From a virus: a stretch of 64,000 nucleotides of DNA. Both the position numbers and the translations under genes were made by a program. Each line of letters begins with the position of its first letter. The stretch's first letter is position 1. The stretch spans positions 1 through 64,000 of the IMG/VR virus record IMGVR_UViG_3300028549_000563, one strand, 5' to 3'. Below, piece after piece: positions 9,211 through 61,990 of the stretch. Below the pieces are notes generated by a model that saw only the letters and a program-made list of their open reading frames with translations, did no database searches and was not told the origin of the DNA.

Positions 9211-9378
9211 TAGAAAAATAAACTTAAAACATAAAAATAACTATATATTATACTAGTGATTGGTATGAATAGTTTTATGCTTTAAGTAAAATAAACTAGT
9301 CTGAGTCGATTAGATTCAGACTAATATTCATACACAAAATTAAAAATTATTTTCATGAGATGGAAGGAGAAACAAATT

Positions 9379-10245
9379 ATGACTCAATTTTACAACAATC
9401 AATACGGGAACCAACCTTATCCACAGCAACAACAGTATGGGGCTATGAACTATAATGCACGTCCTATTATTCAACCTAAGATGACACAACAGTCAAAAGA
9501 TGAGATCGAATTGTTACGTCGCGATGGAGAAAGTAAATTCTCTTTAGCATTGACAGATCTTGAAATGACCAGATCAGGTTGCCCTCATAGGGAAAATGGC
9601 CGTTTAACTTATACTGATAATGCAGATGGTACCGTTACATGCTCGATTTGTAGAGAGACATTTAATTTAGTAGACGCATCAGCAGCTGATGTCGGAATGA
9701 AAGTTGCAGATATTATTGACGTTCTGCAAAGTGTTAAAGCTTTACACTTAGACATCCCAGAGGATGTATTAAGATCATTCATGCCAATCATTGAAATGCT
9801 TAAAAAGGTACCAAGACTTTACGAAATGGCTGTTAATACTTTCCAAAAATACGATGTACCTATTCACCAAAATGCAAATGATCAATATGGATTTTCTCAA
9901 TTTGCTAACATTATGGGTGCAGGTTTTGGTATGCCACCAATGCAAATGCCACAATACCCAGCATATGGTCAACAACCATACATGGGTCAAATGCAACAAC
10001 AACCAATGGGTAATTATGGTCAACAACCACAATTCTATCAACAACCACAAACTGGTTATGGTGTTGGTAATCCATTTGGCAATAATGGTGGTGATCCCAC
10101 AATGTATCAACAACCACAATATCAACAAGCACCACCAAGTTATCAAACAGCACCAGTTAATATCGGACAACCAGTGGATCCATCTATGATCCCTCCACAA
10201 CCAGGTGCACCAACATTAGAAAGTACTAAGACTTACCAAGTATAG
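9379..10245 (+). CDS. Zn-ribbon protein flanked by Q/Y/P/G-rich low-complexity (prion-like) tails
   Basis: SD GGAAGGAGA 8 nt before ATG 9379 (in frame with track ORF 9355). CPH...CSIC cysteine pairs. N-tail QFYNNQYGNQPYPQQQQYG; C-tail of about 110 aa rich in Q, P, Y, G, M. Confidence 0.65.
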   Translation: MTQFYNNQYGNQPYPQQQQYGAMNYNARPIIQPKMTQQSKDEIELLRRDGESKFSLALTDLEMTRSGCPHRENGRLTYTDNADGTVTCSICRETFNLVDASAADVGMKVADIIDVLQSVKALHLDIPEDVLRSFMPIIEMLKKVPRLYEMAVNTFQKYDVPIHQNANDQYGFSQFANIMGAGFGMPPMQMPQYPAYGQQPYMGQMQQQPMGNYGQQPQFYQQPQTGYGVGNPFGNNGGDPTMYQQPQYQQAPPSYQTAPVNIGQPVDPSMIPPQPGAPTLESTKTYQV

Positions 10246-10355: not shown

Positions 10356-11912
10356 TTGGTAGTGGTAAACAATATTAATAATGATATGATGAAAAAAATT
10401 AAAAACTATGAGAATGAAATAAAATCATTAGAAGGATTTCATCTTGTAGTACGCCGTACTCCTGCTAGATATATAGGTGGAGTAGGTAACAAAGGATTCT
10501 TAAATCTATTTAGAGAGATACTTCAAAACTCTCTAGATGAAATAATGAAAAAGAATTCTCTTACTAACGTAGTAAGAGTTTCATTTGACGTTAGAACACT
10601 TGCATCTATTATACAAGATACAGGTAGAGGTATACCATTTGCTAAGATGATAAAAATCTTTACAGATGATAAGACATCTTCAAATTATGAAAAACAAAAA
10701 GGCGAATTTAGTTCAGGTGCTCATGGTACAGGTTCTACTATAGCCAATGCATTATGTACGTTATTTATGGTTGAAAGTTTTATTACAAGTATTGATGATA
10801 AAACAAAAACTGTAGAGTATAATGGTAGAAAGATTACATTTGATAATTTTATACCAACTACACCAGAACCTGAAGTTATTGAAAATCCACAGCTACAAGG
10901 AACTAGAGTTACATTTATACCATCAACAGATGTTTTAGGTATGATTACTATAGACCATAAAGAAATAATCCATATGATTAGATCTTTATTACCATTAACA
11001 GATATAGGCACCACAGTAGAATTTTCTTATATTGATAAGAATGGTAAAGCTGGAAGAGAAATAATTACAAATAAAGATGGTATACTAAGTATACTTATAT
11101 CAAATACAAAGTCGCCATTGATGATGCCAATATCAATAAAAGCAAATAATGGTGATGTAATGACTGATATATTATTAACCTATGATACTGATGAAAATGA
11201 AGGCGAAAGTGTTATATCATTTAGCAACTATTGCCATACAGTCTATGGTGGAACACATGTAGATGGATTCATGGAAGGTATTAGAAAATTCTTTAAGAAT
11301 TATATGAATAAGATTTATTTAAAGAATAATGCAAAGCTATCTATATCTAATGCTGATATATCATCAGGGTTAAAAGCTGTTGTAAGTGTATTAGTTCTCG
11401 ACCCACAATTTACTTCACAATCTAAAGATGCACTAGGTAATCCAGAGATTGTTGATTATATGCGAGACTTAGTATATGATTCATTAGAAGAATGGTCTAA
11501 ACGTCAACCAAATGATTTACAGAAAGCTTGTAAGTATTTAAAAGGTATGGCAGAAATTAGACTTAAATCTGAAGCTGGAAAAGTTAAAATGAATAAGTTT
11601 ACAGCATCGACTATTACAGGGCTACCTGCAAAGTATGATGCACCTTCAGATATGTCCCTACCCGGATTAGAATTCATAATGTGTGAAGGAGACTCTGCGG
11701 CAGGTAAAGCTAGAACTAATAAAGGTAAAAATCAAGGAATACTTCCATTACGTGGAAAGATTTCTAATGCGTTTACTACAACTAGAGAAATGCTACTTGC
11801 AAATACAGAAGTCCAGGCTATTATAAATATAATAGGTGCTGGATATGGTAGATCCTTTGATATCTCTAAATGTAGATACGAGAAGATAATAATAATGGCC
11901 GATGCCGACCCT
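10356..11912 (+). CDS. type II DNA topoisomerase large (GyrB/T4 gp39-like) subunit, exon 1
   Basis: GHKL and Toprim motifs EILQNSLDE, DTGRGIP, GAHGTGS, QSKDALGN, EGDSAAG, PLRGKISN, IIIMADAD. TTG start with SD GAGGTG. The ORF continues only 6 codons past the proposed splice site. Confidence 0.85.
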
Positions 11913-12109
11913 AAACTTATTGGGGCATAATAGAGTGATCTATTATGGAAACACTTTTTGAATTGCTGGGAATCCCTTAGAGCCTATGTAACTACAACGT
12001 GACCTGTAAAGGTGAGCGTGAATGTTTGAAAATATATAGGATTGGGTTATCTATAGCAGCGAAGCTTAAATAATCATAGTCTCCTAAATTAATATAAGGA
12101 GGTGATATC

Positions 12110-12691
12110 ATGAAAGAATTATATACACCTTTTACTATAAAACCTTTTGAGTACTATAAAAAATGTACTTATCCGGGAGTGAAAGAAGATTTATATATTA
12201 TATCAGATGAAGGAAACATAATAAATACGAAGACAAACAAAACTAGAAAAACTAATATACTGGACAAAAATGGTTACCCTAGGCTAGAAATGGCCTGTAA
12301 AGAAAAAGGAAGACACATTCAGTTACATATATTAGTCGCACATGAATTTATAGGAATTCGACCAGAAGGACTTGTGATTAATCACAAGGATGGCGATCCT
12401 ACCAGATCATTTGCGGAAAATCTAGAATACATAACACAAAGCGAGAATGTAAAACATGCATATCGAATTGGATTGGCTACACCTCTTGCAGGTGAAAACG
12501 CCAATGGTAATGTATATAAAGAAAGTATGATTCGTGAAATATGTAAAATGTTTCAAGATGGTATAGATATAAAAGATATAAGAAAAACTTTTGGTGCTAG
12601 TAGAACTAATAATAGATCTACATACTCACTAATAGATGATATCAGAGCTAAAAGAACTTGGAAGTACGTTATACAAGATTATGATTATTAA
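12110..12691 (+). CDS. intron-encoded HNH homing endonuclease
   Basis: INHKDGDPTRSFAENLEYITQSENVKHA (HNH_3-type); SD AAGGAGGTG. N-terminus is LYTPFTIKPFEY. Confidence 0.8.
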   Translation: MKELYTPFTIKPFEYYKKCTYPGVKEDLYIISDEGNIINTKTNKTRKTNILDKNGYPRLEMACKEKGRHIQLHILVAHEFIGIRPEGLVINHKDGDPTRSFAENLEYITQSENVKHAYRIGLATPLAGENANGNVYKESMIREICKMFQDGIDIKDIRKTFGASRTNNRSTYSLIDDIRAKRTWKYVIQDYDY

Positions 12692-12740
12692 GAACGTTCA
12701 ACGACTATCGAAAGCTACACTATTTAAGAAATTAAATAAT

Positions 12741-12819
12741 TAATGACACTGATGCTGTAATAATTCGGTGGGTATAGAAATATACTTAAAGCTAGTAGAG
12801 TACACTCAAGTGAGTGGAA
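12741..12819 (+). repeat. 79-nt block identical to the reverse complement of 54258-54336 (shared intron core)
   Basis: Compared by eye, base by base: taatgacactgatgctg...caagtgagtggaa. A further 23-nt identical block lies at 12696-12718 and 54360-54382. Confidence 0.85.
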
Positions 12820-12937
12820 GCGGAAAGTATCTATTATATAAGCATAATAGATAATGATATAGTCTAGACTATAATGAAAATTATAGAAGTTCATAAGAGA
12901 ACTGGTTAGGATTAACGAACCTAATTGAATTGCCTCG

Positions 12938-20265: not shown

Positions 20266-20531
20266 TGACTAGAGTTGTTAATATAAACAGTGAGTCTTAT
20301 GATGTATATATTGGCAGAGGTAGTAAATGGGGTAATCCGTACAGAATTGGTATTGATGGTACGAGAGATGAAGTTATAGCAAAATTTAGAAGATACATAA
20401 TGAATCATATGTCATTAATGAACTCGTTATACGAACTTGAAGGTAAGGTTTTAGGTTGCCATTGCAAACCAGAGGCTTGTCATGGAGATGTATTAGTATC
20501 GTTACTCGATGATTTATCAACATTTATTTAA
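20262..20531 (+). CDS. DUF4326-like small protein
   Basis: YIGRGSKWGNPY ... LGCHCKPEACHGDVL resembles the DUF4326 signature as I recall it; ATGA start/stop overlap with the upstream gene. Confidence 0.4.
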   Translation: MMTRVVNINSESYDVYIGRGSKWGNPYRIGIDGTRDEVIAKFRRYIMNHMSLMNSLYELEGKVLGCHCKPEACHGDVLVSLLDDLSTFI

Positions 20532-20535
20532 ATTA

Positions 20536-20550
20536 TATATTATATAAATG
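20536..20550 (+). promoter_or_regulatory. TATATTATA-N3-ATG promoter-like box
   Basis: tatattatataaatgtagata, upstream of 20586. Confidence 0.5.
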
Positions 20551-20585
20551 TAGATATAAATTTTAACTTAAGGAGAAAGTTTATT

Positions 20586-22228: not shown

Positions 22229-22801
22229 ATGAAAATTATGGAACAACAGGTCGAAGAGATATATAATGATTTTAAAAATTATCCTTATAAACCTGGGATG
22301 TCAATTAAAGATACCATTAAAGGTAAAGGTGTTCTTTAAAGCAGAATCTATTACTGCATTTTTAGGATATGATAACAAGCCAGAAGATTTTATGAGATCA
22401 ATAATATCATCATTAAATTATGATGATATTAATGTAAAAGAACTATGTAACACGCCAAAGAATATACTATATATTTATACAGATTTCACCAACCTATGTA
22501 AAAGATCCTAATACAAAAATAATTCTATTTGATTTAGAGTATATTGTAGAAGATCCTAATATCGATATATTTAGCAATAGACTTGAAGTAAATATGATAT
22601 TAAATAGAATGCGTCATCGGTATATGCAATAGAGATATATCTATTTTTATCTATGATAATTATAGGAACTTTCAACAAGTCGGATTTTTCAAATATGAAA
22701 GATATACAAGAATTACATATATTTCAACTACAGTATTTACATGTGATATAAACGGTACTAAAATAATTAAGTCTGAAGTTGCAGATATAATCAAATTATA
22801 A
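22229..22801 (+). pseudogene. decayed gene: four consecutive ORF fragments in frames 2,0,1,2 (possible Bro-N-like domain)
   Basis: SD GGAGG then ATG 22229. Stops at 22337-22339, 22509-22511 and 22630-22632, each followed by open reading in the +1 frame. The fragment FFKAESITAFLGYDNKPEDFMRSI resembles Bro-N. Confidence 0.4.
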
Positions 22802-22809
22802 TATAATAA

Positions 22810-22824
22810 TATATTATATAAATG
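22810..22824 (+). promoter_or_regulatory. TATATTATA-N3-ATG promoter-like box
   Basis: tatattatataaatgaagta, upstream of the tubulin gene. Confidence 0.5.
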
Positions 22825-22875
22825 AAGTACATTAAATAAAAATTTAAATATGAAATTAAAAGGAGATTATTAATT

Positions 22876-31413: not shown

Positions 31414-31470
31414 GCAGAAAATTAAATGTTTACAATGTATTAAACATTTAATTAAAGTGTATTATAATTA

Positions 31471-31485
31471 TATATTATTAATATG
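31471..31485 (+). promoter_or_regulatory. TATATTATT-N3-ATG variant box
   Basis: tatattattaatatg, upstream of 31542. Confidence 0.4.
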
Positions 31486-31541
31486 TATAATTTTAATAAT
31501 TATATCAAAAAACATAATAAAAAGATTCAGAGGAGGACATT

Positions 31542-40780: not shown

Positions 40781-40989
40781 TATATTACCTTTCATGTGTT
40801 TTGATGATTTTCATGTGGGTTTTATAATGCACACTATTTTGATATAGAACATGGACCTAGGGTATTTCCCTAGGTCCATAAATTTGATCTTATAACATAC
40901 CTATAAGGAATTTGACATATGTTCCTTAACATTGGTTAGGATTTTCTTCTCATGAAAAGGGTGTTGCTATTAGCAACACCCTCCTTTTT
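40781..40989 (+). ncRNA. candidate small structured RNA (promoter-like box, three hairpins, terminator)
   Basis: TATATTACC-N4-ATG box at 40781-40796; 12-bp hairpin at 40851-40879; 7-bp hairpin at 40904-40928; terminator at 40959-40989. No SD-supported ORF. Confidence 0.25.
40959..40989. terminator. bidirectional terminator
   Basis: gggtgttgct / att / agcaacaccc flanked by AAAA and TTTTT. Confidence 0.75.
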
Positions 40990-52677: not shown

Positions 52678-54132
52678 TTAGTTATCATTGTAAAAATCTG
52701 TAAATAAATTGGTTGGTAATTGGACAATTCCAGTATCACGTTCACTTAGATCTATATGATATTTATCCTCATATATTTTTCTACCGAGTTTAGTGTTTAA
52801 AAGGTTCTCCATAGCCTGATTATCTTTTGTAGTTTCTTCTGCTAAGAACTTATCATACAATTTAGATTTATCTTTTAATATCTCTAATTGTCTTTGAACT
52901 ACTTCATCAGATATTGTTTCTATTTCTACAGCAATATTAGTTTTATATCGCTCTTCAATCTTATCAATACCTTCTTCAAAATCGGCATCCGATTTAATAG
53001 ATTGTTTTCTGACACCATATCGTTCCATGATATCTTTACCTTCATACCAAACATATAGTGCCATTAAGTATGAGAATATCTGGTCGTCATGTGATTGTGA
53101 TGAATGTTCTATCTTACCGTTACGTTTTACTTCTAGACCTTCTAATTCGCTAAATATTATAGGAGCTATAAATTTATCTTTATGATGCTCCATACGCTCT
53201 CTTAGAATTTCCATTAATAAATTTCTTATTTCTTTACTAGAATCAAGACCATATACTTTGGTTCTTTGTGTAGTCTTAATAGTTGTTCCACCTTGACCAA
53301 CACGTTCTTCAATAACTTTATCTTTGATCTCATAAAATAGATTTCTCTTAATGGATGTCTTCATTAATTTACTAGTAACTGATGCTCCATATCCGCCGTT
53401 TCGCTCTATATTAACTACAGCATTTGGCATATATCTTGTTACTAATTCATATATAACTCTTGCCAAATCATCTGTACTTATATAATTACAATTCAATGTA
53501 GCTACTATTTTAGTAGTAGTGGAATCAATTATAGTTATTGCAGATGAGTCTCTCATATATCCACCAGAAACGTCTACACCTATAATTGGAGGATATTGTA
53601 AATTCATTTCTTCATAAATATGCATTTGATAATAGTTTGCTAAAGTTATAGTTCGTATAGGTTCTTTAATCAACCCTTTAACTATATTTATATCTTCTTT
53701 CTTGAAAGGAGAGTTATCTGAAGTTTTGGACCACTCTAATAAAACTTCTCGGCGGATTGCACTCCAATCTTTTCTCATTGTAATACATAATTTTCTAAAC
53801 CATTCTTCATTCTGTCCAAGTTGTTGATACGTATATCTAATATAAACAAAGTCACTATTAGTATTCTTACCAAGAAGATCTCGCAATTGATCTTCTCCTA
53901 AGTCATAGAATGATTCATCAAATCTAGTTGCTGATTCTTTAGTTTCATAAGCCTCTAGACCTTCAGTGGTAGTCATATCTCCAGGAGTTGTTGTTATCAA
54001 GATACCATATGGAGCATTGTTTCTAGCAGCATTTGATGCAGCTGTATTGAAGGCTGGTGTAGCTGATAAGTATACTATGCCTACATAAGGTATAAACGCA
54101 TATTCATCGTACCATTGAATAGGTTGTGTACA
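52678..54132 (-). CDS. terL: terminase large subunit, exon 2
   Basis: The frame is open from 54132: CTQPIQWYDEYAFIPY (Walker B-like WYDEYAF) runs into track ORF 52678-54000. Confidence 0.8.
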   Translation of the reverse strand, partial: CTQPIQWYDEYAFIPYVGIVYLSATPAFNTAASNAARNNAPYGILITTTPGDMTTTEGLEAYETKESATRFDESFYDLGEDQLRDLLGKNTNSDFVYIRYTYQQLGQNEEWFRKLCITMRKDWSAIRREVLLEWSKTSDNSPFKKEDINIVKGLIKEPIRTITLANYYQMHIYEEMNLQYPPIIGVDVSGGYMRDSSAITIIDSTTTKIVATLNCNYISTDDLARVIYELVTRYMPNAVVNIERNGGYGASVTSKLMKTSIKRNLFYEIKDKVIEERVGQGGTTIKTTQRTKVYGLDSSKEIRNLLMEILRERMEHHKDKFIAPIIFSELEGLEVKRNGKIEHSSQSHDDQIFSYLMALYVWYEGKDIMERYGVRKQSIKSDADFEEGIDKIEERYKTNIAVEIETISDEVVQRQLEILKDKSKLYDKFLAEETTKDNQAMENLLNTKLGRKIYEDKYHIDLSERDTGIVQLPTNLFTDFYNDN

Positions 54133-54506
54133 CGTGTTCTTCAGTTAGAGTCGTTAATTCTAACTCGTTCTCTTATGAACTGCTATATGTTACCATATAG
54201 ACGAGACTATATCTTCACCCTAACATATCTCTTATAAATATGTTAGGGGCTTCCCATTTCCACTCACTTGAGTGTACTCTACTAGCTTTAAGTATATTTC
54301 TATACCCACCGAATTATTACAGCATCAGTGTCATTAGAGCATTCAGTTTCTTGAATGACGTAGCTTTCGATAGTCGTTGAACCTTATTCCTAATAATTAT
54401 TAGGAATCTTGGCTGCTGATTGTCCCATTACATTTATTGGGAGTTCCCAGACAATTAAAGAAGTTTTTTACGCCGCATTACTACGACGAGAGGCAGTATT
54501 TAATTT
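54133..54506 (-). mobile_element. ORF-less group I intron in terL
   Basis: Exon 1 ends ..GAGGU, which can pair with GCCUC 13 nt into the intron (U.G wobble). The intron ends ..ACACG. It shares 79-nt and 23-nt identical blocks and a homologous 3-prime end with the topoisomerase intron. Confidence 0.75.
54258..54336 (-). repeat. 79-nt block identical to 12741-12819
   Basis: The reverse complement matches base for base. Confidence 0.85.
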
Positions 54507-55196
54507 ACCTCGACCTAAACTATTTGCTAGTATTTTATTACGTGCAGACGCTAACGTTCTAATCTTATTCTTATTCGATGGATGTTCCAATGTCTCGACT
54601 GTATCTTTTGGTTTGGTATATTTTCCATTATCTCCAGGAATAGAATCCATTATTAGATAAGATGGTAATGATCCACGAAGCTCTTTAAATCTAGCTAAGT
54701 TCATTTTTGAGTCTTCATGCTTCTTATTAATAAACATAAACTCTGAGTTAGATGTACCAAAATTAAATACCCATAAATAACGTATCAATGCAGATACGGT
54801 CTTACCATTCTGTCTAGGGAACTCTACAAACATATTCCAGTTTCTTACAAATCCAAAGTTTAATGCTAAGTTTCCTCTAGTAAGTTTATACTTAGCACCA
54901 GAACCTATAGCACCCCCTTGATCGGGAACTCTTACTACTTCACGAATAAAATACCAATAATTTAGTATACATTCTCTAAGTATTCTTGCTTTCATTTGTT
55001 GATTTAATCTTGGATCTCTTGGATCTACACCTTCTAAGCCTTTATCTAATAATGCTAAAAAGAATGCATTCTTTTTGATACCTCTATCTTTTAGATAGTA
55101 GTGTATATCTAAGAATGATTGATTATTGGTCGAAAGATGGGTATGTACTACGTATTTATACTGTGGTGCGCCATTAATAGCCATATCATGTACCAT
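54507..55196 (-). CDS. terL: terminase large subunit, exon 1
   Basis: FPRQNGKT (Walker A). The ORF continues only 13 codons into the intron. The start could instead be ATG 55184, because 55196 abuts the SD. Confidence 0.8.
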
Positions 55197-55311: not shown

Positions 55312-55363
55312 ATTTTGCTATGATCCCGAAGATCTATAGCACACTTTCAAGGAGGACTTTAAA
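55312..55363 (+). repeat. 52-nt hairpin-plus-SD leader element, copy 1
   Basis: attttgctatgatcccgaagatctatagcacactttcaaggaggactttaaa; matches copy 2 at 51 of 52 positions. Confidence 0.8.
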
Positions 55364-55687
55364 ATGAAATATATTAACAAAATAAAATTAACATCAAAAA
55401 TCATGGCTAGCGATAATGATTTATTTTATGAAGAAGCTAGGAAAATTAAAGATTTATTAGAAGAGTTTGCTGCGAATCAAAACATGTTCATTACTAAGTC
55501 TTCCGTTGAAGAAGATTTTGAAAAATTCATGAATGATAATTGCGATTTATCGCTAATATCGATCCGTGTAATAGATAATTTAATGTATGAATTTATAAAT
55601 TCGTATGACGACAATCTATTCACTATGCCATCAACTCGACAAGTAATGATTATTCTTGCAAAAGTAGTTTATAGAGCTACTGCATAA
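55364..55687 (+). CDS. hypothetical protein
   Basis: 107-aa ORF behind leader copy 1. Confidence 0.55.
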   Translation: MKYINKIKLTSKIMASDNDLFYEEARKIKDLLEEFAANQNMFITKSSVEEDFEKFMNDNCDLSLISIRVIDNLMYEFINSYDDNLFTMPSTRQVMIILAKVVYRATA

Positions 55688-57042: not shown

Positions 57043-57094
57043 ATTTTGCTATGATCCCGAAGATCTATAGCACACTTTTAAGGAGGACTTTAAA
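57043..57094 (+). repeat. 52-nt hairpin-plus-SD leader element, copy 2
   Basis: Same as 55312-55363 apart from one C/T difference. Confidence 0.8.
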
Positions 57095-61859: not shown

Positions 61860-61898
61860 AAGTAATGGGGCGACCCATTACTTCTCTTTTTGTTTTTT
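61860..61898 (+). terminator. hairpin terminator
   Basis: aagtaatggg / gcga / cccattactt followed by a T-run. Confidence 0.75.
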
Positions 61899-61903
61899 AA
61901 TTA

Positions 61904-61918
61904 TATATTATATTAATG
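61904..61918 (+). promoter_or_regulatory. TATATTATA-N3-ATG promoter-like box
   Basis: tatattatattaatgtagata, upstream of RNAP beta-prime C; near-identical to the 20536 copy. Confidence 0.5.
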
Positions 61919-61990
61919 TAGATACTTGATTTTAGAATCTTATAGTATCACTAACTTACTATTAATAAGACAAGATGGAGGGTTAATATA

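Follow-up and report, generated by a model that had tools for sequence, protein, structure and literature searches.

The stretch of DNA analyzed here, called the window below, comprises positions 1 to 64,000 of the IMG/VR virus record IMGVR_UViG_3300028549_000563. On its minus strand lies terL, the gene for the large terminase, whose two exons are separated by a short group I intron. A gyrB-like topoisomerase gene, 41 kb away and on the opposite strand, is divided by a second and much longer group I intron, and the two introns share a block of 79 nucleotides (nt) without a single difference. The genes of the window point to an uncultured jumbo phage distantly related to the Bacillus phages AR9 and PBS1: its TerL protein is 38% identical to that of the AR9/PBS1 jumbo phages, and Staphylococcus jumbo phages are likewise distant kin. 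The longest public contig bearing genes of this phage measures 225,566 nt, of which a window of ~64 kb represents about a quarter. When we compared the two regions with GenBank phages by megablast, the terL region returned only an 85-nt match, at the 3' end of the intron, and the topoisomerase region returned none; no close cultured relative was found.

Exon 1 of terL encodes a Walker A-like motif (PRQNGKT), and its product ends in ...NSLGRG. The exon itself terminates in ...GGUCGAGGU at position 54507. Exon 2 opens with UGUACACAACC at 54132, and the peptide encoded at its start, CTQPIQWYDEYAF, is a Walker B-like hhhhDE motif, so that the intron sits just upstream of this motif. A preliminary analysis of the DNA made without database searches (the sequence-only reading) had placed at this junction a group I intron lacking any open reading frame (ORF), and our results agree with it. 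Rfam model RF00028, whose gathering score is 50 bits, matches positions 54516-54183 of the minus strand with 98.4 bits (E=3e-24) over model positions 1-253 of 253, and the predicted fold of the intron has a z-score of -4.5. Joining the two exons keeps the reading frame (...NSLGRG followed directly by CTQPIQWYDEYAF), and the exon 1 frame, if read into the intron, meets a stop after 13 intron codons, at 54468. Nine public contigs carry the identical 238-amino-acid (aa) read-through ORF of exon 1, the fragment that gene callers at present give for terL.

The P1 helix proposed in the sequence-only reading can also be read from the sequence, as can the terminal G of the intron. GAGGU at the end of exon 1 (54511-54507) provides the 5' strand of P1, and GCCUC, at intron positions 13-17 (54490-54494), pairs with it over 5 bp with a U.G wobble at the splice site; the intron ends in the G at 54133. 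After transcription the RNA would fold, the exon GAGGU and the internal guide GCCUC would form P1, guanosine would attack after the U of the U.G pair, and the terminal G would direct exon ligation, restoring ...LGRG-CTQPIQWYDE.... Positions 54133-54506 thus almost certainly hold a group I intron, which would be of the phage IA2 type and presumably splices itself, with splicing predicted at the junction given above. The IA2-like label is provisional, taken from the architecture and from the similarity to introns of AR9 and of Staphylococcus phages rather than from a subgroup covariance model. We found no sense-strand ORF of at least 40 aa within 54133-54506, where P6a is a simple hairpin, and the terL intron therefore carries no homing endonuclease of the kind by which mobile introns are recognized. 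Two antisense ORFs (46 and 83 aa) in the same interval were judged spurious. Hairpins P9.1 and P9.2 are present, and the ~114 nt between the P7 5' strand, which ends at 54370, and the P3 3' strand at 54255 are occupied by a P7.1 junction with hairpins A to C, followed by P7.2.

The gyrB-like gene encodes the Pfam domains HATPase_c, DNA_gyraseB, Toprim, and DNA_gyraseB_C and is split at 11912/12938. Its spliced product, ...IIIMADADP followed by DGAHIATLLLSFF..., aligns without gaps to the GyrB sequence ...LVLMTDADVDGAHIRTLLLTLI... (...MTDADVDGAHIRTLLL). The protein encoded within the intron matches HNH_3 with an E-value of 7e-8, above the curated cut-off of that family, and NUMOD4 with an E-value of 4e-4 and 21.1 bits, under the cut-off of 23.4 bits. 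RF00028 recognizes the 3' part of this intron alone, at a subthreshold 27.6 bits, a shortfall explained by the 580-nt ORF. The check with a covariance model suggested in the sequence-only reading was therefore positive for the terL intron and fell below threshold for the topoisomerase intron. No further intron emerged in the window when Rfam was run at a permissive E-value. Searches for relatives of the topoisomerase intron returned no close orthologue: its HNH protein has a best homologue of 36% identity, and IMG/VR yielded no gyrB relatives. We also considered that this endonuclease might act on the terL site, and dropped the idea: the targets, GCCGACCCT followed by GATGGGGCG and GGTCGAGGT followed by TGTACACAA, show no resemblance. 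Annotations of this widespread uncultured jumbo phage need both genes, terL and the gyrB-like gene, joined across their introns. The coordinates of both genes and introns are collected in Table 1.

Table 1. Positions of the exons, introns, ribozyme helices, and shared blocks in the window
Feature	Position	Strand	Remarks
terL exon 1	54507..55184	-	called ORF starts MAING (55184); upstream ATG at 55196
terL exon 2	52678..54132	-	starts UGU ACA CAA CCU (CTQPIQWYDEYAF); ends at stop codon
Group I intron of terL (IA2-like), ORF-less	54506..54133	-	374 nt; RF00028
Internal guide sequence GCCUC	54490-54494	-	terL intron
P2	54471-54488	-	terL intron
P3 5' strand	54458-54463	-	terL intron
P4-P5	54414-54453	-	terL intron
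P6/P6a	54381-54413	-	terL intron
J6/7 and P7 5' strand	54370-54380	-	terL intron
23-nt block (J6/7, P7 5' strand, start of P7.1)	54360..54382	-	23/23 identical to 12696-12718 (reverse complement)
Hairpin A of the P7.1 module	54337..54359	-	61% identical to 12719-12740; differences compensatory
79-nt block	54258..54336	-	79/79 identical to 12741-12819 (reverse complement)
Hairpin B	54307-54330	-	in 79-nt block, after junction UAAUGA
Hairpin C, GAAA loop	54292-54305	-	in 79-nt block
Junction UUAAAGCU and P7.1 3' strand AGUAGAGUA	54275-54291	-	in 79-nt block
P7.2 hairpin	54261-54274	-	in 79-nt block; followed by GAA
P3 3' strand	54250-54255	-	terL intron
P8	54218-54249	-	terL intron
J8/7 and P7 3' strand	54205-54217	-	terL intron
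P9	54183-54200	-	terL intron
P9.1	54167-54180	-	terL intron
P9.2	54143-54165	-	terL intron
Terminal G	54133	-	terL intron
Paralogous group I intron	11913..12937	+	1025 nt; in gyrB-like gene, between DADP and DG of the Toprim motif
HNH homing-endonuclease ORF	12110..12691	+	193 aa; in P6 loop; own ribosome-binding site AAGGAGG

The two identities between the introns described in the sequence-only reading are exact, and each copy reads in the sense direction of the gene that hosts it, which makes them inverted relative to one another. With up to 3 mismatches allowed, the 79-mer occurs at exactly two places in the window and in none of 100 shuffled sequences. At a length of at least 28 nt, just two inverted-repeat pairs were reported in the window, and both derive from the intron pair; no exact repeat as long as the 79-nt block exists elsewhere in it, and searches with core motifs found no third member of the family there. 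The wider search that had been proposed for the 79-mer thus confirmed the two copies in the window and found no exact occurrence in IMG/VR, from which a 26-mer taken from the block is likewise absent. In the JGI metagenome collection, this 26-mer retrieved one contig only, which belongs to the same phage and carries the topoisomerase copy. The shorter block has a simpler explanation. The exact 23-mer is also found in three unrelated IMG/VR contigs and the block is conserved across the family, and constraint explains its identity.

The 79-nt block had been labeled a shared ribozyme core, and this label does not hold. The block extends from UAAUGA through P7.2 and stops 2 nt short of the P3 3' strand, in a region of 112 nt that is handled as an insertion by the Rfam alignment. 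It is a peripheral P7.1-P7.2 elaboration, located between P7 and the P3 3' strand and outside the catalytic core. The whole module reads, in order, AUCGAAAGCUAC, hairpin A, UAAUGA, hairpin B, a single G, hairpin C, UUAAAGCU joined to AGUAGAGUA (which closes P7.1), P7.2, GAA, and the P3 3' strand. The core helices themselves differ: P3 is formed by CUUCUU and GGGAAG in one intron and by ACUUUUU and GGAAAGU in the other, and the P8 sequences are unrelated. The flanking stems differ as well, as had been noted, with compensatory changes between the two introns in P9 and P9.2; P2 is dissimilar, and the terL intron has a short P5 where that of the topoisomerase intron is long. Beyond the two blocks, the introns are 61% identical in hairpin A, 71% from the P3 3' strand to the end, and ~58% in the 5' part. 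The tract of 79 identities in 79 positions is therefore sharply bounded by flanks of 61-71% identity, and it covers positions that vary in the family.

We evaluated this variability using a module pattern derived from the conserved joining nucleotides. Nineteen IMG/VR loci match the pattern, 14 of which were aligned with the two window copies for variability and covariation. In this alignment, 29 of the 79 positions are invariant and 50 vary. Hairpins A to D fold in nearly all aligned members with differing sequences, and each position in stems B, C, and D is occupied by three to four types of base pair. In hairpin B, pairing reaches 99% and 4 of the 6 pairs have undergone double changes; the covariation score of this hairpin, 0.75, compares with 0.20 in shuffles (0 of 500 reach the observed value) and 0.06-0.18 when the pairing partners are slid. 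Conservation across the family concerns the junction nucleotides (UAAUGACA, UGG, UUAAAG, and AGUAGAGUA), and the loop of hairpin B is semi-conserved. The nearest copy of the 79-nt block outside the window is 73% identical, and by our own arithmetic the chance that 50 free sites would all match at a background identity of ~70% is ~2e-8. Very strong constraint on the ribozyme core, one of the explanations put forward in the sequence-only reading, does not account for the 79-nt identity, given the free covariation of the stems and the 50 variable positions among the 79. Two further matches to the module pattern, obtained in a scan of a genome collection, had no intron context and were taken as chance.

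Next, we compared the terL insertion site among relatives, with and without an intron. The spliced motif LGRGCTQPIQWYDE is uninterrupted in the intronless relatives, namely IMG/VR contig L008 and Bacillus phage Goe21 (LGRGCTVPIIWYDE), which read through the junction as LGRGCTQPIQWYDEYAF and LGRGCTVPIIWYDEFAF, respectively, and exon 2 is colinear with the intronless TerL of Goe21 and of contigs L008-L012. An LGRGxTxP...DE-type motif is unbroken in 117 of the 120 best full-length TerL homologues (57-68% identity, ~708 aa). Conversely, a break directly after LGRG is also seen in six related ORFs for the TerL N-terminus (68-82% identity). The distribution at this site is therefore sporadic, with Goe21, L008-L012, and the 117 homologues lacking an intron and the six ORFs and four sequenced loci having one. 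The codon boundary after LGRG, beside the Walker B-like motif of the terminase, emerges as a site repeatedly occupied by introns in this clade.

The terL introns at the four sequenced loci (L047, L048, L049, and L051), all from uncultured relatives, resemble the one described here in their site after LGRG (shifted by 1 nt downstream for the first intron of L048), in P1, and in the organization of P2, P9, P9.1, and P9.2. They differ in P6, where three of the four (L047, L049, and L051) carry HNH_3 ORFs of 197-209 aa instead of the plain P6a hairpin found here; the introns of L048 have no ORF. The HNH proteins of these relatives are 30-32% identical to that of the topoisomerase intron. On the best reading, the terL intron would be a degenerate homing intron that has lost its ORF, from a lineage that usually bears an HNH gene in the P6 loop, and with the ORF lost it could not home by itself. 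In L048 (~940-1880; ENA ERZ23491059 scaffold_49652; TerL N-terminus 79% identical), terL contains two group I introns, neither with an ORF; a micro-exon of 21 nt, GTACCCAACCTATTCAATGGT, lies between them, and the second intron is located after ...QW. A second module of patchy occurrence is the extended P5 (~90 nt, ...CCUUAGAGCCU...ACUACAACGUGA...GUGAGCGUGAAUG...), which lies at window positions 11960-12060 in the topoisomerase intron. We compared it with its counterparts in L005, L007, L049, L051, and the first intron of L048; it is absent from L047 and, unlike in L048, L049, and L051, from the terL intron of the window.

Relative to its closest orthologue, in L047, the terL intron is 80% identical over P1-P6 and 83% identical from the P3 3' strand to the end. 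Its backbone thus appears to have occupied this site since before these phages diverged, as it is 80-83% identical to introns at the same site in phages whose TerL proteins are 68-82% identical. The interior of P7.1 is a different matter: it spans 79 nt here versus 34 nt in L047, and the two are not homologous. A simple P7.1 with one hairpin (about 34-40 nt) is found in all five related terL introns. P7.2 has the topoisomerase version (CACUC paired with GAGUG), unlike that of the terL orthologues (CAACUC paired with GAGUUG), and two bases past P7.2 the terL-type sequence resumes (AUGGGAAGC here versus AUGGAAAGC in L047). The large P7.1 module, as far as these comparisons indicate, is peculiar to this copy of the terL intron.

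A recombinational origin of the 79-nt identity is a likely explanation in light of these results. More specifically, the P7.1-P7.2 module of the terL intron was probably replaced or homogenized by nonreciprocal recombination with the paralogous intron. Gene conversion, which the sequence-only reading had listed among its options, is thereby supported and can be sharpened to the replacement of one module in an otherwise orthologous intron. The event could have been a short-tract gene conversion or a module swap between the paralogous introns, in which exchange would be primed by blocks common to both intron types (GUUCAACGACUAUCGAAAGC upstream; AGUAGAGUAC, CUCAAGUGAGU, and GGAA downstream). The tract would end where the chimera stays foldable, that is, before the P3 3' strand, which has to pair with the 5' strand of the same intron, and after hairpin A, which folds by itself; selection may have acted on the tract ends. 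As for direction, the topoisomerase intron groups with introns of contigs L005 and L007, which have the extended P5 and the same type of module. This grouping favors a transfer from the topoisomerase type to the terL intron. The 79-nt repeat is a possible substrate for further recombination as well. Because the copies are inverted, a crossover between them would turn 41 kb around and leave terL exon 1 fused to exon 2 of the topoisomerase gene. Viable products should therefore come from non-crossover events only; a junction of these two exons was not found among public contigs.

Several observations weigh against this scenario or limit it. Hairpin A is only 61% identical, despite being bracketed by identical blocks, and one tract copied from the topoisomerase intron as it now stands cannot account for the entire module; an older acquisition of the module followed by a recent conversion of 79 nt, or a donation from a third intron, are both possible. 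The window is also small compared with the 225,566-nt contig, and further paralogous introns may exist. The direction of transfer is deduced from the terL side only, as no close orthologue of the topoisomerase intron was found. The public copies of this phage do not differ from one another and give no handle on how recent the event is. Finally, terL splicing is itself deduced from sequence.

A related scenario is that both introns received the 79 nt from another paralogue, located elsewhere in the ~225-kb genome or in a coinfecting phage. The divergence of hairpin A and the limited share of the genome covered by the window would fit such a third-party donor, and so would the abundance of related introns in other phages: Internexus, an AR9-like phage, has 16 places matching the terL intron, indicating that many paralogues per genome are normal. 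Nevertheless, there is no third copy within the window, the 26-mer search retrieved nothing beyond the topoisomerase copy in JGI metagenomes and nothing in IMG/VR, and a further donor is not needed to account for the identity. We therefore consider this origin unlikely, albeit the most credible of the alternatives to a direct exchange between the two introns.

Alternatively, identity itself could be under selection if hairpin B, hairpin C, and the P7.2 segment were read by a shared phage or host factor or had a second, sequence-specific function. The strong conservation of the junction nucleotides across the family is compatible with this idea; the semi-conserved loop of hairpin B could reflect a tertiary or protein contact, and contig L007 likewise has two introns with an identical module. 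Yet the stems of the family change freely while their pairing is kept, and related terL introns manage with a simple P7.1 of 34 nt. Moreover, HNH intron endonucleases are not known to act as maturases, and selection for identity would still need recombination to originate it. This explanation is improbable.

The sequence-only reading had also raised the recent spread of a whole intron, in which the terL intron would be a fresh copy of the topoisomerase intron, or vice versa, arising for instance by reverse splicing and followed by loss of the ORF. Both introns do belong to the same IA2-like family, with a common organization of P7, P9.1, and the 3' terminus, and both end in CG, but an identity of 58-71% outside the blocks, the differences in P2, P5, and P8, and above all the orthologous terL introns, with their 80-83% identical backbone at the same site, make a whole-intron transposition very improbable.

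Independent assemblies bear on the remaining alternative. Contigs 100% identical to the window come from JGI, ENA (assembled with SPAdes and MEGAHIT k141), and Logan, and represent at least five samples. The topoisomerase copy is crossed by L014, L015, L016, L018, and L019, and the terL copy by L022 and L021 (99.8% identical), in each case with unique sequence on either side. Further contigs stop at the repeat or within it, such as L017 at 12770, L020 at 12772, and L024 at 54371, as is expected of a real repeat in a de Bruijn graph. More generally, the ends of L017, L020, and L023-L025 fall at 12770-12772 or 54371-54394, at or within ~12 nt of the shared blocks, and the shared block thus fragments short-read metagenome assemblies at terL and gyrB. 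That an assembler collapsed or cross-threaded two similar repeats, an artefact of which these breaks could be a sign and which the sequence-only reading had advised checking for, is scarcely credible when seven contigs from different samples and assemblers span a copy with the correct unique exons and the same 79-mer, and when each copy fits in register into a valid intron structure.

Similar exchanges can be recognized in other phages. The terL gene of AR9, a member of the AR9/PBS1/Internexus group of Bacillus jumbo phages (Takahashivirus), is annotated as five joined pieces, with four RF00028 introns around the Walker B region. The 3' parts of these introns (P7', P9, P9.1 CAGUUCAUAAGAGAACG, and P9.2) are 80-85% identical to the terL intron described here, and exact blocks of up to 64 nt recur among the four. 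These blocks connect neighboring introns of one gene, whereas those in the window connect two genes that are 41 kb apart and inverted. In addition, the introns of AR9 and Internexus have a different P7.1 variant (ACCGACUUAUCAGAUCGUUGUGA...) instead of the UAAUGACA type. The insertion sites are also close without being the same. AR9 intron 1 (L001 1091) lies after KLG, 6 nt upstream of the site after LGRG (54507), and the gyrB gene of Internexus (L045 1369) is split in the same Toprim motif, after DADDDG, 6 nt downstream of the site between DADP and DG (11910-11912). In both genes, therefore, the intron is located exactly 6 nt from the site used in an AR9-like phage, within the same catalytic motifs.

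Homogenization like that seen in the window recurs in two of the other phage contigs. Neighboring introns of L007 (4-136 and 535-667) share 133 nt at 99% identity, a stretch that covers the whole P7.1-P7.2 module, and neighboring introns of L005 (4348-4537 and 4829-5018) share 190 nt at 98% identity. Phage T4 offers a further parallel. Its td, nrdB, and nrdD (sunY) introns are IA2-type introns with P7.1/P7.2 extensions, located in essential genes of nucleotide and DNA metabolism, and spontaneous domain shuffling between T4 introns via recombination at shared sequences has reportedly been obtained, with chimeric introns as the outcome. Those exchanges are said to have been selected in the laboratory and to be crossovers with deletion of the intervening DNA. 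In contrast, comparative sequence analysis points here to a natural, non-crossover patch, affecting a peripheral module and not half of an intron. What is unusual in the window is only that the exchange connects unrelated genes 41 kb apart and that it can be pinned to one peripheral module.

Introns in terL are also documented in another phage family. According to a study of Bastillevirinae and Twortvirinae (PMC11878797), group I introns, mostly IA2/IA3-like, split terL in 5 of 52 Bastillevirinae, with two or three introns in some genes; many of these introns carry HNH or GIY-YIG ORFs; and splicing of the SIOphi terL was demonstrated in vitro and in vivo. These introns belong to a different phage family and occupy different sites. 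In the text of that study, the word "identical" occurs once and P7.1 and gene conversion not at all, and we found in it no evidence of a discussion of blocks shared between introns of different genes.

The terL and topoisomerase introns provide a natural example in which modules of group I introns (P7.1-P7.2, the P5 extension, and the endonuclease ORF) are acquired, lost, and swapped independently of one another and in which paralogous introns of one genome homogenize each other. This extends what has been learned from T4, Twort-like, SPO1-like, and AR9-like phages and leaves the current understanding unchanged. A bolder proposal, which we put forward tentatively and with more doubt than confidence, is that the UAAUGACA-type P7.1 module is a discrete RNA domain that can pass from one group I intron to another without the remainder of the ribozyme. 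Its retention might reflect better folding or splicing, or the docking of a shared factor, and the P5 extension, which is present in some orthologues and missing from others, may behave likewise. A peripheral-domain exchange between introns of unrelated genes would then have been caught in the act in this phage, and the intron families of jumbo phages would evolve in concert, module by module.

Other repeats and features were observed in the window. Next to terL, a 52-nt direct repeat (98% identical; 55312-55363 and 57043-57094) lies in divergent intergenic space; each copy ends in the ribosome-binding site AAGGAGG just ahead of a plus-strand ORF (for example, ATG at 55364), and the repeat looks like a shared leader or promoter region. 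A 38-nt AT-rich repeat with the core ATTATATATTATATAAATG is found at 20516-20553, 22790-22827, 31451-31488, and 61884-61921; the copies are 74-79% identical to the reference at 20516 and possibly represent a promoter-type element. The start of the window contains a 95-nt direct repeat, 83% identical, at 1-95 and 172-266, with the copies 171 nt apart. A subthreshold Rfam match to cow-rumen-3 RNA at 40850-40982 on the minus strand (30.6 bits versus a gathering score of 86.7; E=0.005), in which good alignment is limited to the two terminal hairpins, is probably due to chance. Directly upstream of the gyrB-like gene, positions 9355-10245 of the plus strand encode a 296-aa ORF with low-complexity ends rich in Q, P, Y, and M and a central pair of cysteine motifs (CPHR...CSIC).

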